Below, one piece after another: positions 31,842-35,172 of a stretch of 41,788 nt of DNA; position 1 is the stretch's first letter, and the number at the start of each line of letters is the position of its first letter. The notes under the pieces are model-generated. The model saw nothing but the letters and a program-made list of their open reading frames with translations, searched no databases and was not told the origin of the DNA. Origin of the DNA: a virus; IMG/VR virus record IMGVR_UViG_3300029531_000014; one strand, written 5' to 3'. The position numbers were made by a program, and so were the translations under genes.

Positions 31842-31868
31842 AAAAAAAGACCACCCAAAAGGGTGGTC
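31842..31868 (-). terminator. Rho-independent terminator after the regulator gene
   Basis: GACCACCC-tttt-GGGTGGTC followed by TTTTTTT on the minus strand. Confidence 0.7.
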
Positions 31869-32190
31869 AAAGTACATGGGAAATTTTCCGAAGTGATTCT
31901 CTGTGCCTCTCTTTAATTGTACGTTCGGAAAACCCAAGAGAATCACCGATATATCGAAAATCTTTTTTCTGAACATAATGCATCCTCAAAATAGCTTTGT
32001 CCTCATCATTCAGTGTGCATCGCGCTAAAACTGCATCAAATTCAGATACAAGCGGAATCGCTTTCAATGCTCGTCTTGTTTCAATGTGTCCTGGGCTTGA
32101 ATTTTGTTTCTGTGCCAGCAAATCAAAGAGGATTAAACATAATGCTTTACACTCTTCTAATTCGTTTACTGTTCCTTCTGGAATCTTCAT
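31867..32190 (-). CDS. Sigma-70 region-4-like / ArpU-RinA-like transcriptional regulator
   Basis: C-terminal HTH FRYIGDSLGFSERTIKERHRESLRKI. 107 aa. Confidence 0.5.
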   Translation of the reverse strand: MKIPEGTVNELEECKALCLILFDLLAQKQNSSPGHIETRRALKAIPLVSEFDAVLARCTLNDEDKAILRMHYVQKKDFRYIGDSLGFSERTIKERHRESLRKISHVL

Positions 32191-32273: not shown

Positions 32274-32645
32274 ATGATCATTATACAAGCAAAAATCAAA
32301 GGAACACCTGCTTCTCTCCACGAGTCACTAAAAAAAGCAACAACAAGTATGTTGGTTCTTTTTCTGTTGCGTCAGAAACCTATGTACATTTATGAAATTA
32401 TGTCATCTATTTCAAAAATGAGTGACGGAAAAATTTCTTTTTGTACTCTATACGCTTTATCTAATAAACTTCAAAAATTAGGTTTTGTCCGTGTTGCATC
32501 TAAAGAAGTGAGTGAAGATAACAGAATCCGCGTATACTTGTCAATTACAGAAATAGGATTAGATTATCTTTCGGACTGTATTGCATCTTACAAAGATTTT
32601 AACCATGATATAAACGAAATACTTTCAACTGACGTCTTAAAATAA
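32274..32645 (+). CDS. PadR-family transcriptional regulator
   Basis: MLVLFLLRQKPMYIYEIMSSISKMSDGKISFCTLYALSNKLQKLGFV...NRIRVYLSITEIGLDYL. Confidence 0.7.
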   Translation: MIIIQAKIKGTPASLHESLKKATTSMLVLFLLRQKPMYIYEIMSSISKMSDGKISFCTLYALSNKLQKLGFVRVASKEVSEDNRIRVYLSITEIGLDYLSDCIASYKDFNHDINEILSTDVLK

Positions 32646-32699: not shown

Positions 32700-33464
32700 T
32701 TACAGTAATCCTTTTCGCCCCAGCACTGCAATCACCTCATCCCGTTTCATGGGGCGCTCCGGGCTGGTGCCATCCACGATGCCATTTGCCACAGCCTTTG
32801 CCCAATGTCCCTCCTGTTGGGACCAGGCGGGCTCAGACAGCGTCTTCGCGTGGAGCTCTGCTTTCTGCATGAGCTGGTAGGCTTGTTCGTTGGTCATTTC
32901 AGAGATCAACTTTGCAATATCCATGGGTTCATCCTCTCCTTCCAGCCGCCGGTTGACCTCGGCGGCAATCTCTCCGTGCCGATTGTATAGATAATCCCCC
33001 GGGCAGGCCTTGGCGGCGAACCACCGGTGAACCGTCATATTCTGCTTGTCCGCCTGGCCGATCAAGGATTTATCCCCTTTCCACAGTAGTTTCTTGATCC
33101 CATTTCTCCGGCAGATATCCGTCAATAGGTCCAGCAATGCGGCGTAGGCTTTGTCTGACACCGGCCAATCCGGCGCCCCACCATTGTTGGCCACCTCAAT
33201 GGTGATGGCCCGATGATCGTTGGAGGCGCTGGAGGTACACCAGGACCGATTTGCTTCATCTACATATAAGGCAATCCGTCCGTCGCTTCCAATGCCGTAG
33301 TTGCTGCTGGCCTTGCGGGACGGGTCGGCAAACAAGGCCCCGCAAGTCTCTACGCTGGCATTGCCCGCCATGCAGTGGATGGAAACGGTGTCGATTACAT
33401 GGTTGCGCCGCCCGGAATGGTTAGGGGATCGTTTGGTGTAGGTTACAAGTGGGCTGTTACTCAT
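32700..33464 (-). CDS. Endolysin: N-acetylmuramoyl-L-alanine amidase (Amidase_2/PGRP type) with a C-terminal binding region
   Basis: VIDTVSIHCMAG...SSNYGIGSDGRIALYVDE...AITIEVAN...AKACPG. ATG follows GGAGTGAGGAGTGG. Confidence 0.85.
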   Translation of the reverse strand: MSNSPLVTYTKRSPNHSGRRNHVIDTVSIHCMAGNASVETCGALFADPSRKASSNYGIGSDGRIALYVDEANRSWCTSSASNDHRAITIEVANNGGAPDWPVSDKAYAALLDLLTDICRRNGIKKLLWKGDKSLIGQADKQNMTVHRWFAAKACPGDYLYNRHGEIAAEVNRRLEGEDEPMDIAKLISEMTNEQAYQLMQKAELHAKTLSEPAWSQQEGHWAKAVANGIVDGTSPERPMKRDEVIAVLGRKGLL

Positions 33465-33513
33465 CCACTCCTCACTCCTTTCAAGCAGGACAAAAAGTCC
33501 CCGGCCTGTTCTC

Positions 33514-33541
33514 TTGACAAACCAGGGCGGGATGGTATAAT
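33514..33541 (+). promoter_or_regulatory. Plus-strand consensus promoter TTGACA-16-TATAAT with TGn
   Basis: TTGACAaaccagggcgggaTGGTATAAT. It faces into the minus-strand lysis operon. Confidence 0.6.
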
Positions 33542-33547
33542 GAAAAA

Positions 33548-33645
33548 CAGAAAGGGCGCTGCTACAAGCGGTTTAGCCCGTGCAAGTTAAGAGATCAAAG
33601 CAAAAGCCTTGAAACCGTCACTTGGCCGAGTGGCGGTTTCTGCCT
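33548..33645 (+). ncRNA. Candidate antisense RNA (may extend to the 33855 terminator)
   Basis: Runs from the promoter above to hairpin 33611..33640. It has no ATG-initiated ORF downstream of the predicted start, and its 5' end is homologous to the opposite-strand leader. Confidence 0.4.
33611..33640. terminator. Shared 11-bp hairpin between the convergent promoters
   Basis: GAAACCGTCAC-ttggccga-GTGGCGGTTTC with moderately U-rich tails in both orientations. Confidence 0.5.
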
Positions 33646-33701
33646 TTAATGCGAATCGTTACGGTATATCCAAAGATATGTAACGTAATCGTAATGGGCA
33701 T
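33618..33701 (-). CDS. 27-codon ORF with a strong sequestered SD (candidate type I toxin-like peptide)
   Basis: AGGAGGTGAGGCCC-ATG gives MPITITLHIFGYTVTIRIKGRNRHSAK. The SD is paired in CCUCC-GAAA-GGAGG and the stop lies inside the shared hairpin. Confidence 0.4.
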   Translation of the reverse strand: MPITITLHIFGYTVTIRIKGRNRHSAK

Positions 33702-33786
33702 GGGCCTCACCTCCTTTCGGAGGATGTGGCTAAACCGCCTGCCGTTTTGTGCAGCGCCTCTTTCTGTCCCCTTTCGGGGCGCATCC

Positions 33787-33816
33787 ATCATACCATGCCG
33801 CGCCGCGGATTGTCAA
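33787..33816 (-). promoter_or_regulatory. Minus-strand promoter TTGACA-18-TATGAT with TGn
   Basis: TTGACAatccgcggcgcggcaTGGTATGAT, read on the minus strand. Confidence 0.6.
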
Positions 33817-33822
33817 TTTTTG

Positions 33823-33855
33823 CTGTCCCTTTACCAGGGGCAGTTTTTTGTTTTT
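33823..33855 (+). terminator. Rho-independent terminator oriented for the plus strand
   Basis: CTGTCCC-tttacca-GGGGCAG followed by TTTTTTGTTTTT. Confidence 0.65.
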
Positions 33856-33861
33856 GCAAGA

Positions 33862-34062
33862 TTATCGGAACAGATCCGCCAGCGTCTTTGTCTTAGACTT
33901 CAAGTAGGAACGCTGAATATCGTTCCATTCGTCCATCTCCTTCTCCCAGCCGGTCCAGCCCTGCTGCTGCGCATACATGCGGGAGGCAATGTCTACGTCC
34001 ACGCCCTCTTTCTCGCTGATAGCCTTAATTGCCATGCGATTCGCATAAAAACGGTTTGCCAT
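33862..34062 (-). CDS. Hypothetical protein in the lysis cassette
   Basis: 66 aa. ATG follows AAGGAGAATTCGT. Confidence 0.55.
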   Translation of the reverse strand: MANRFYANRMAIKAISEKEGVDVDIASRMYAQQQGWTGWEKEMDEWNDIQRSYLKSKTKTLADLFR

Positions 34063-34083
34063 ACGAATTCTCCTTCTTTGTCT

Positions 34084-34311
34084 TTAGTTTTTGTTTGCAG
34101 TTTCTTTCTCAACTTCCGGCAGGCCCTTGATACTAACCAGCAAGGACAGTATGCCGGACAGTATGGTGGCCGACAGAACCACCGGCCATTCCACCGCAGA
34201 AAGCACCGCTGCCGCCCCAATCGTGGCAATGGCGGTCTCTGCCATGGTCTTGATTGCACGGATTCCCGCCGCTTTCCACCAGGCTTTCCATTTCTCACTC
34301 ATTCCCTTCAC
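34084..34311 (-). CDS. Holin (r1t / LL-H-like)
   Basis: KAAGIRAIKTMAETAIATIGAAAVLSAVEWPVVLSATILSGILSLLVSIKGLPE. The start is GTG 34311 or ATG 34302. Confidence 0.7.
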   Translation of the reverse strand: MKGMSEKWKAWWKAAGIRAIKTMAETAIATIGAAAVLSAVEWPVVLSATILSGILSLLVSIKGLPEVEKETANKN

Positions 34312-34317
34312 CCCCTC

Positions 34318-34668
34318 TCACAGCCCGATTTTTGCCAGCAGAAACGCAATCACTGCCGCGAAAACAGCCCAGATTGCTTTATCAGCCAACCCTTCCCACC
34401 GGCGTGCGGGCTTGATCTGGAGCTCACTCACCTGGCTGAGTGCCGATGTGATTTTGGAGGACATTTCATCCAGCTTGTCCAGAATCTGAACATACTGTTC
34501 GTCCCGGCGTGCGCTCTCAGTTTCCAGGGCCCGGATGCGGTCATACATCTCCTTATGGGTCTGCCGGGCCGCATCTAAATGGCTGTTCAGAGACTTCTCC
34601 AACATGTTAGCCTTTTGCAGCCCCAGGCATTCATTCCCGGGGTTAAAGGTACACTTGTCCATGGGCAT
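34318..34668 (-). CDS. XhlA-like protein (coiled coil plus C-terminal TM)
   Basis: A coiled coil followed by AIWAVFAAVIAFLLAKIGL. It lies immediately upstream of the holin, as in PBSX xhlA-xhlB-xlyA. Confidence 0.55.
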   Translation of the reverse strand: MPMDKCTFNPGNECLGLQKANMLEKSLNSHLDAARQTHKEMYDRIRALETESARRDEQYVQILDKLDEMSSKITSALSQVSELQIKPARRWEGLADKAIWAVFAAVIAFLLAKIGL

Positions 34669-34701: not shown

Positions 34702-35172
34702 TCAGGGTTCCACTTCCTCCCAAAACTCCGGATTCGTCTCCGGGGACCAGGTGTTGGTGTCGATCTTGCTGCGCCAGGTTTTGCCACCAGCGGTGCAGCA
34801 GTCCCCTTTGGCGTAGGGGGACGTGGAGAGGGAGAGGAAGGGCAGCGCCTTGTCCGGGTCGGTGGACCAGACAAATCCCCACTGGGCGGGCAGTTCCTCC
34901 GGTTCCTGGGGGTAGATTTCACTGTCGTAGACCTGGAGGAGACGAACCACCCGCCCGGCGCTGGACCGGCAGACAAAGCCATCTTTCTGGCCTGCCTTGC
35001 GCTCCAGCATGTTTTTGGCAGTTCTGGCCGCCTGGAAGTCTGGGATATACTCCTCTGCGGCACAGAGTTCCGTGCCGGTCATGGAGGGGGATTCTGCTTG
35101 CAAGTTGACTGCGGCAGACTTCCCCGCCCGGCGCAAGGTATCCAAAACAAACTCTTTTTCAGTCAACGTCAT
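34702..35172 (-). CDS. Hypothetical protein with CBM5/12-like C-terminal motif
   Basis: PYAKGDCCTAGGKTWRSKIDTNTWSPETNPEFWEEV. Confidence 0.5.
   Translation of the reverse strand: MTLTEKEFVLDTLRRAGKSAAVNLQAESPSMTGTELCAAEEYIPDFQAARTAKNMLERKAGQKDGFVCRSSAGRVVRLLQVYDSEIYPQEPEELPAQWGFVWSTDPDKALPFLSLSTSPYAKGDCCTAGGKTWRSKIDTNTWSPETNPEFWEEVEP

Follow-up and report, generated by a model that had tools for sequence, protein, structure and literature searches.

Small peptide genes under the control of an antisense RNA are well established in the type I toxin-antitoxin (TA) loci, and a few of them provide the frame for what follows. In par of the Enterococcus faecalis plasmid pAD1 (Fst/RNA II), two convergent promoters face a small peptide open reading frame (ORF), one terminator hairpin is used by both RNAs and a 5′ structure masks the ribosome-binding site, while the 5′ repeats are direct in the DNA, the two RNAs being complementary there. 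In bsrG/SR4 and txpA/RatA, carried by the prophage-like elements SPbeta and skin of Bacillus subtilis, the antisense RNA converges over the 3′ end of the toxin mRNA, and in these Gram-positive systems such duplexes lead to RNase III-dependent decay. To our knowledge, a hydrophobic transmembrane helix is found in essentially all characterised Gram-positive type I toxins. In turn, phage 'morons' are autonomous promoter-gene-terminator units inserted at sites where related phages have two neighbouring genes. Here we analyse a locus that recalls both kinds of element, located in the IMG/VR virus record IMGVR_UViG_3300029531_000014, a stretch of 41,788 nucleotides (nt) whose full length is referred to as the window.

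In this window, 397 nt separate a 66-amino acid (aa) ORF from the endolysin gene. A first-pass annotation had considered that this gap was not empty, and indeed promoters, a small ORF, a Shine-Dalgarno (SD) hairpin, a central hairpin and a plus-strand terminator are all found at the positions it gave. As delimited by comparison with other copies, positions 33499-33844 are a discrete 346-nt cassette with a hairpin at each end. We propose, with a probability of roughly 0.6, that the cassette is a phage moron acting like a type I TA locus; within this proposal, the transcription of both RNAs, the route by which their duplex silences and the harmfulness of the peptide are what we infer.

The proposed mechanism runs as follows. 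A moderately strong promoter on the minus strand (33816..33787) would make the mRNA for a 27-aa cationic beta-hairpin peptide, whose ribosome-binding site would be held in a hairpin capped by a GNRA loop. This mRNA would pass a weak central hairpin, its 3′ untranslated region (UTR) would fold back on its own 5′ leader, and it would end at the hairpin 33527..33499. From the opposite side, a perfect-consensus promoter on the plus strand (33514..33541) would yield an abundant antisense RNA of ~100 nt, stopping at the central hairpin and having full complementarity to the ORF end and the mRNA 3′ UTR. Where the mRNA leader pairs with the 3′ UTR, this RNA is identical to the leader, and it should therefore be a competitor of the fold-back and give rise to an extended duplex. 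Peptide production would then be blocked by duplex-triggered degradation, by displacement of the fold-back or by both, and the peptide would be made when the supply of antisense RNA fails.

The module is not restricted to the window. A distant BLAST match was found in the human-gut contig MT835905, beside unrelated bacterial ORFs and with no lysis genes adjoining, and this copy keeps the peptide (MPITLTFHIFGLVFTIKVKSENRHPAR). Further copies were collected with a DNA pattern of three motifs, which is present in at least 100 IMG/VR viral contigs and in at least 120 contigs of species-representative genomes. The carrier contigs belong overwhelmingly to Oscillospiraceae, Ruminococcaceae and Lachnospiraceae, with Faecalibacterium prausnitzii, Gemmiger formicilis, Evtepia gabavorous and Anaerotruncus colihominis among the cultured carriers, and tandem copies occur at eight loci among the genome matches listed. 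De-duplication left 158 distinct modules, from which 123 representatives at <88% identity were retained. A few of the genome matches come from unrelated phyla: Flavisolibacter (L137), Polaromonas (L168), Myxococcales (L174) and L210. The peptide ORF is missing in the two that were inspected, L137 and L210, and such outlying matches are probably due to chance.

A search of related loci, which the first-pass annotation had named as a check, thus finds that the module recurs and that its small ORF is conserved as a protein; on this comparative evidence, the module is a conserved unit missed by annotation. Within Rfam, Pfam, NCBIfam, PHROGs, protein-database names and the searchable literature, we found no description of such a family. 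When the 57-aa upstream-extended form of the ORF was used as a protein query, 32 proteins were returned, all of them without names, and exact database look-up gave only 'hypothetical protein', for the mis-extended 57-aa ORF.

The 27-codon ORF had been correctly placed at 33701..33618 on the minus strand (stop codon included) and its product would be MPITITLHIFGYTVTIRIKGRNRHSAK. Throughout the family the peptides fall into classes of 25, 27 and 29 aa, represented by MRITLHIGRFTVTIIVKSRNRHPGR, that of the window and MRFTLTFHIGHKTVTLSLVVKSKNRHPGR, respectively. Selection was analysed in the part of the ORF upstream of the central hairpin. In the 25-aa class the ratio of nonsynonymous to synonymous polymorphism (pN/pS) is 0.15, and the entropies of the three codon positions (5.4, 2.6 and 17.8) place the variation at third positions; of the other frames of this class, one gives a ratio of 2.8 and the remaining one offers no usable comparison. 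By these measures, the small ORF is protein-coding and under purifying selection. About a dozen modules start with GTG or TTG, and a few are decayed. Among the latter, a truncated copy in F. prausnitzii CP186691 (L131) reads MRITFHIG followed by a stop.

The end of the ORF obeys other constraints. The codons for the residues NRH (AAC CGC CAC) are the left arm of the central hairpin, the alternation between HS.K and HP.R in the peptide corresponds to a covarying base pair of the same hairpin, and the codons for VKS, read backwards, are the U-tract of the antisense terminator; the C-terminal residues are, as judged from this overlap, largely set by the RNA. Some ORFs end just before the central hairpin and encode 20-22 aa devoid of the NRH tail (e.g., MPITITLHIFGITVTIKIKR and then a stop), so the tail would be dispensable for the protein. 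Other variants lacking the stop codon reach 31-52 aa. Length variants were found in L162, L175 (two copies), L160 and L204, as well as in P0024, P0026, P0028 and P0032-P0039.

Both promoters proposed at the first reading hold. The antisense promoter, TTGACA-16-TGgTATAAT (33514..33541, plus strand), matches the consensus at 12/12 positions and has an extended -10 element, and the peptide-mRNA promoter, TTGACA-18-TGgTATGAT (33816..33787, minus strand), at 11/12, with a predicted start near 33780. They are the top two promoter-like sites within 3.5 kb, a length for which we calculate about 1e-3 expected 12/12 matches. The match of the antisense promoter is complete in 97 of the 123 representatives and at least 11/12 in 115 of them; it keeps a fixed distance to the conserved leader, and conservation ends directly upstream of its -35 hexamer. 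The mRNA promoter is the weaker of the two, scoring 7-12/12 across the family versus 4-9/12 in shuffled sequence.

The antisense RNA predicted in the window extends over 33548..33652 of the plus strand (~100 nt; 92-120 nt across the family). It comprises a 5′ stem-loop (33554-33579), a spacer that is variable among modules, and a terminator hairpin followed by a U-rich tail. The stem-loop is conserved and its outer helix covaries (GGGC/GCCC, GGAG/CUCC, AGGC/GCCU, AGAG/CUCU). At the sequence level, then, the module has what defines a type I antitoxin: a predicted cis antisense RNA with its own promoter and terminator, overlapping the ORF.

The start of translation appears to be masked, as in type I mRNAs. 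In minimum free energy (MFE) folds, the mRNA begins with a CCCC-GAAA-GGGG hairpin (33768..33779, minus strand), and the SD is locked, as had been suggested, in a CCUCC-GAAA-GGAGG hairpin (33707..33723, minus strand), with CCUCC at 33723-33719, GAAA at 33718-33715 and the SD, GGAGGUGA, at 33714-33707. The loop is of the GNRA type in 95/121 modules, the third pair of the stem is C-G in 78 and U-A in 25, tracking GGGGG versus GGAGG SDs, and the SD is paired in the MFE structure of 110/123 modules. With the full mRNA alignment as input, RNAalifold gave the central hairpin, a weak leader-SD helix and nothing more, since the columns of the SD hairpin were broken by indels; the latter hairpin was therefore counted with a register-free script.

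The central hairpin (33611..33640, both strands), which carries the last codons of the ORF and its UGA stop, had been regarded as the point of convergence of both transcripts. Its position and the stop codon inside it stand; its role as a symmetric shared terminator does not. Double changes number 19, 43, 31 and 56 at four of its pairs. What is a conserved C·A mismatch on the mRNA strand becomes a G·U pair in the antisense RNA, and the hairpin is more stable on the antisense strand in 122/122 modules (-21.0 versus -14.9 kcal/mol). Moreover, the antisense side has the better U-tract in 93 modules and the poorer one in 9. From this strand asymmetry and U-tract bias it follows that the central hairpin, judged by covariation and predicted stability, terminates the antisense RNA and forms a leaky barrier to the mRNA.

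What lies beyond this barrier is informative with respect to the inverted repeat, described at first as an imperfect inverted duplication of the two leaders. The repeat is real and larger than supposed, since it spans promoters plus leaders (33514-33578 versus 33728-33816, with arms 76-93% complementary), and it is not merely a duplication. Its right arm is the mRNA leader (33728..33767, minus strand), which holds GGCGGUUUAGCC and would be the 5′ half of a 5′-3′ fold-back; its left arm is the leader of the antisense RNA (33547..33578, plus strand), whose minus-strand complement would be the 3′ UTR partner of the mRNA leader. In diverged modules the two arms share one derived leader sequence, and the arm-similarity score is 9.08 within modules versus 6.56 between them, a value reached in 0 of 2000 permutations. 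A helix was then evaluated in which the mRNA leader pairs with the antisense leader's complement, i.e., the 3′ UTR of an mRNA reading through the central hairpin. Four positions after GCGGUU are pairable in 95-98% of cases within a module and in 58-83% with shuffled partners. Differences between the arms are of the G·U type on the mRNA strand in 69 instances; the A·C type, equivalent to G·U on the opposite strand, accounts for 3. This strand-specific bias points to RNA pairing on the mRNA strand and argues against gene conversion or a function at the DNA level.

Altogether, the inverted repeat is best explained as a predicted 5′-3′ fold-back of a read-through peptide mRNA, whose covariation implies that the mRNA passes through the central hairpin. 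The fold-back is present in the MFE structure of 121/123 read-through mRNAs, and that of the window reaches -123.4 kcal/mol (z = -7.9). A different partner had been suggested for the leader, and GGCGGUUU is indeed complementary to AAACCGCC of the central hairpin; the favoured partner is instead AAACCGC in the 3′ UTR, the complement of 33566-33572. GGCGGUC variants of the leader are matched by GACCGC in the other arm in 3/4 independent cases, with AACCGCC of the central hairpin unchanged. Pairing of leader GGCGGUU with central-hairpin AACCGCC was accordingly not favoured, both on these U-to-C variants matched in the 3′ UTR arm and on the MFE folds, which choose the 3′ UTR in the same 121/123.

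Just past the antisense promoter, a terminator in the mRNA direction was detected in 50/117 modules, versus 15/117 in an opposite-direction control. In the window, the corresponding element is a right boundary hairpin with a U-run (33490..33527, minus strand, the hairpin itself being 33527..33499), terminator-like in the mRNA direction and overlapping the antisense -35 hexamer. It was absent from the first-pass list; the read-through mRNA likely terminates there, and so does the cassette. With arms inverted in the DNA, the leaders of the two RNAs are like-sense and not complementary to each other.

The nature of the peptide is the point at which the TA-like reading has to be weighed. Its composition is rich in T (20%), I (20%) and V (12%), with polar and hydrophobic residues alternating about a central Gly turn; the median net charge of the peptides is +5, and the longest stretch free of charged residues and His measures 8 residues at the median. 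For a natural read-through variant of 34 aa, AlphaFold2 with a shallow alignment gave a beta-hairpin with strands at residues 3-9 and 12-18, a predicted local distance difference test score (pLDDT) of ~82 over residues 1-20 and a disordered tail. The peptide is, in this model, an amphipathic cationic beta-hairpin and not a membrane helix. The hydrophobic N-terminus formerly attributed to it is not of the membrane type, the peptide being far less hydrophobic than known type I toxins.

Several observations weigh against the TA-like proposal. The best 17-aa Kyte-Doolittle mean of the peptides is 0.62-1.68, versus 1.79-2.70 for ten known type I toxins, and neither hydropathy nor AlphaFold2 yields a transmembrane helix. 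Pfam and NCBIfam give zero family matches for the peptide, and in PHROGs the only match is weak (E 0.011), to a family of unknown function, with no annotated family matched. A terminator in the mRNA direction past the antisense promoter was detected in only 50 of the 117 modules. Part of the apparent conservation of the three search motifs comes from ascertainment by the search pattern itself; an independent pattern, made of the SD hairpin and first codons only, returned 66 matches of which 60 were already in the collected loci, so the motifs are truly conserved and not merely selected by the search. Finally, between the 5′ part of the antisense RNA and the 5′/start region of the mRNA, no trans complementarity beyond shuffled controls was found (mean z 0.32). 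Trans pairing of the SprA1-AS/par type, from an antisense 5′ domain to the mRNA start, was rejected on this ground, and any silencing must work via the 3′ overlap.

Of the original assignment as a type I TA-like module, the hydrophobic toxin is thus lost. What remains is a strong antisense promoter facing a weaker mRNA promoter, a sequestered SD, the 3′ overlap, multiple and tandem copies and links to prophages and integrases. The main rival takes the peptide to be a non-toxic small protein tuned by a cis-antisense RNA, e.g., a regulator, a nucleic-acid-binding peptide or an effector of phage defence or anti-defence, with neither addiction nor killing. We regard it as rather unlikely, and it draws on real features: a cationic beta-hairpin with a basic tail instead of a membrane helix, no homology to known toxins, the many copies beside housekeeping genes rather than on mobile elements, and decayed copies such as that of L131. 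Against it, a weak promoter, a locked SD and a consensus antisense promoter conserved across 123 diverse modules are what a harmful product would lead one to expect, and the tandem and scattered multi-copy distribution is like that of type I TA loci.

The genomic context bears on a second rival, already raised by the first-pass annotation, in which the module would be an antisense-controlled promoter, leader or attenuator of the endolysin, translation of the small ORF opening the hairpin and transcription going on into the endolysin gene. In the window, the mRNA promoter does aim at the endolysin, the ORF stop lies within the central hairpin and the cassette supplies its own SD context beside the endolysin start. 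Across the family, however, the lysis setting is not specific, and most copies lie between unrelated housekeeping genes. The nearest neighbours of the 123 modules include aconitase, polynucleotide phosphorylase, pyruvate kinase, S-adenosylmethionine synthetase and transporters, along with integrases (6/107 upstream), a few helix-turn-helix regulators and two amidases. Upstream neighbours are in the same orientation in 67 cases and opposite in 44, and downstream neighbours in 43 and 71, respectively, an inconsistency from which it follows that the module is not the leader of a downstream gene. Moreover, a terminator-like hairpin (33527..33499) stands between the module and the endolysin, the same cassette is found at a different junction in L244, and purifying selection acts on the peptide sequence itself. 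Gene orientation was the ground for rejecting a leader or attenuator role, which we hold to be very improbable.

The comparison of related phages, i.e., those with an endolysin ~82-98% identical to that of the window, gives a direct view of the cassette as an autonomous unit. In 31 relatives, the 66-aa gene is followed by a gap of ~113 nt and the endolysin, without the cassette, and about 10 relatives carry the cassette instead. The ~113-nt gap (L224, L225, L233 and others), equivalent to the window junction 33465-33861, encodes an acidic ORF of ~35 aa, MEEKNAPLSVVHPEDDIPESMLDEMTNGKGEDKDE, whose stop overlaps the endolysin ATG and for which no PHROG match was found. The exchange is a replacement of the interval between the 66-aa gene stop and the endolysin ATG. 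In L244 (230-600), a near-identical cassette occupies a second junction, directly after the homologue of the window ORF 34702-35172, and the 35-aa ORF is still present ahead of the endolysin. By comparison of these two insertion contexts, the cassette ends exactly at its flanking hairpins, at window positions 33844 and 33499. In L235 (1120-1490), the cassette links the homologue of 34702-35172 straight to the endolysin, with neither the holin nor the 66-aa gene; recombination between two cassette copies seems to have deleted them, which would have left a lysis-defective prophage. As in a moron, an autonomous unit lies between genes that are adjacent in relatives. A copy 83% identical over window 33359-33817, including ~100 nt of the endolysin 5′ end, was also observed in Evtepia gabavorous KLE1738 (L143, 6040-6493), where it is followed by a flavin adenine dinucleotide (FAD)-oxidase gene and not by the endolysin; it may be a prophage remnant and hints at the genus of a possible host.

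A third rival is a miniature inverted-repeat mobile DNA element or recombination site, whose arms would act as DNA (in transposase or recombinase binding, or as a cruciform) with ORF and promoters incidental. It could draw on the inverted arms, the cassette-like presence or absence with alternative insertion points and the integrases among upstream neighbours, and is nevertheless highly improbable. The arms vary between copies and covary within a copy with the G·U bias that is an RNA signature and on which this rival was rejected; the repeat is internal to the cassette, which truly ends in two unrelated hairpins; coding selection acts on the ORF; and in the window the cassette came in as a replacement and left no duplicated target.

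As regards the surroundings, every gene in the lysis-gene part of the window lies on the minus strand: an r1t-type holin (34084-34311), the 66-aa ORF (33862-34062) and an Amidase_2 endolysin (32700-33464). The left boundary of the cassette is a hairpin with a T-run (33822..33855, plus strand; stem 33822-33844) of 9 pairs and a TTTTTGTTTT tail, terminator-like for transcription in the antisense direction; it agrees with the plus-strand terminator listed at first as 33823..33855, and its stem is part of the mobile cassette, since it also flanks the cassette at the different junction in L244 and L235. On the other side, the hairpin and U-run of 33499-33527 (minus strand) sit between the cassette and the endolysin SD, so that endolysin transcription must pass up to three hairpins or use the cassette promoter. 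Upstream of the holin, a 116-aa ORF (34318-34668, minus strand) matches PHROG 937 'hemolysin' (E 1.5e-12), its only Pfam match being a spurious one to Med4. Beyond the endolysin lie a PadR-family regulator (32274-32645, plus strand) and a sigma-70 region 4/DUF1492 small protein (31867-32190, minus strand). An Rfam scan of 33300-34100, with E up to 10, gave chance matches only (CRISPR-DR10, mir-230 and NsiR4); that of CRISPR-DR10 (33351-33386, plus strand) falls within the endolysin ORF with 20.4 bits and E 0.084, the gathering score being 39, and was taken as chance.

In a bolder and tentative form, which we consider possible though doubtful, the cassette would be the first example of a hitherto undescribed family of RNA-controlled toxins, very widespread in gut Clostridia and their phages. 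Such a family would combine a cationic beta-hairpin effector of 25-29 aa in place of a membrane helix, an mRNA kept inert by its fold-back, an antisense antitoxin that mimics the mRNA leader and competes for the 3′ UTR, and a phage-borne, hairpin-bounded cassette in the lysis region, serving, e.g., phage exclusion, prophage stabilisation or lysis timing. Should the TA-like reading proposed above hold, the type I TA class would gain a large unannotated family in Clostridia that dominate the human and animal gut and have been little studied, with Faecalibacterium, Gemmiger, Oscillibacter, Evtepia and their phages among the carriers at stake. Its effector would break the membrane-helix rule, and searches based on hydrophobicity would miss it. 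The covariation would provide a clean and testable RNA design, with an inverted repeat that is a fold-back and an antisense RNA that resembles the mRNA leader. Furthermore, close phages with the cassette, without it or with it at another junction constitute a natural experiment on lysis, lysogeny and phage competition. Even if the peptide were non-toxic, a strongly conserved small-protein gene would have been overlooked by present annotation.

How, then, does the module stand with respect to the systems already described? With par it shares the convergent promoters, the small peptide ORF, a 5′ structure masking the ribosome-binding site and a hairpin position common to both RNAs, here 6 kcal/mol weaker and with a poorer U-tract in the mRNA direction. 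Its repeats are inverted, unlike the complementary 5′ direct repeats of par, its leaders are like-sense and no start-region trans complementarity was found. Fst is a membrane helix, which the module peptide is not, and there is no sequence homology between them. With bsrG/SR4 and txpA/RatA it shares prophage carriage and an antisense RNA converging over the 3′ end of the mRNA, and silencing through a 3′ duplex is presumed; their toxins are hydrophobic membrane peptides unrelated in sequence, and we know of no fold-back of leader on 3′ UTR built from an inverted repeat in these systems.

The closure of the mRNA has its counterpart in hok/sok, where the full-length toxin mRNA is shut by a 5′-3′ fold-back. 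In the module the equivalent structure is predicted and backed by covariation, and this is an analogy, not a homology. Sok pairs with the 5′ translation region, whereas the module antisense RNA overlaps the 3′ end; hok/sok belongs to Gram-negative hosts, Hok is a membrane protein without homology to the module peptide, and a family-library search found no Hok domain in the latter. The type I toxins of Clostridioides difficile are peptides of 34-53 aa that combine a membrane domain with a lysine-rich tail, and are likewise unlike it. The C. difficile loci (CD2517.1/RCd8 and those of phiCD630-1) are reported to be prophage-borne, to use an antisense RNA as antitoxin and to be implicated in keeping mobile elements (PMC5961336, PMC7699646); to that extent they resemble the module in being clostridial, prophage-borne and antisense-controlled, with unrelated sequence. 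A role of such loci in the phage cycle has a precedent in hokW-sokW of prophage Sp5, which is produced on induction and aids phage release (PMC8621323).

Judging by its sequence, the module belongs to none of the par, bsrG/SR4, txpA/RatA or hok/sok families. In its genomic behaviour, it is close to the morons: it comes with promoters and flanking hairpins of its own, some phages of one lineage carry it and others lack it, and it occurs at two junctions. That term describes behaviour in the genome and not a mechanism, and the cargo in this case is a small ORF paired with an antisense RNA.

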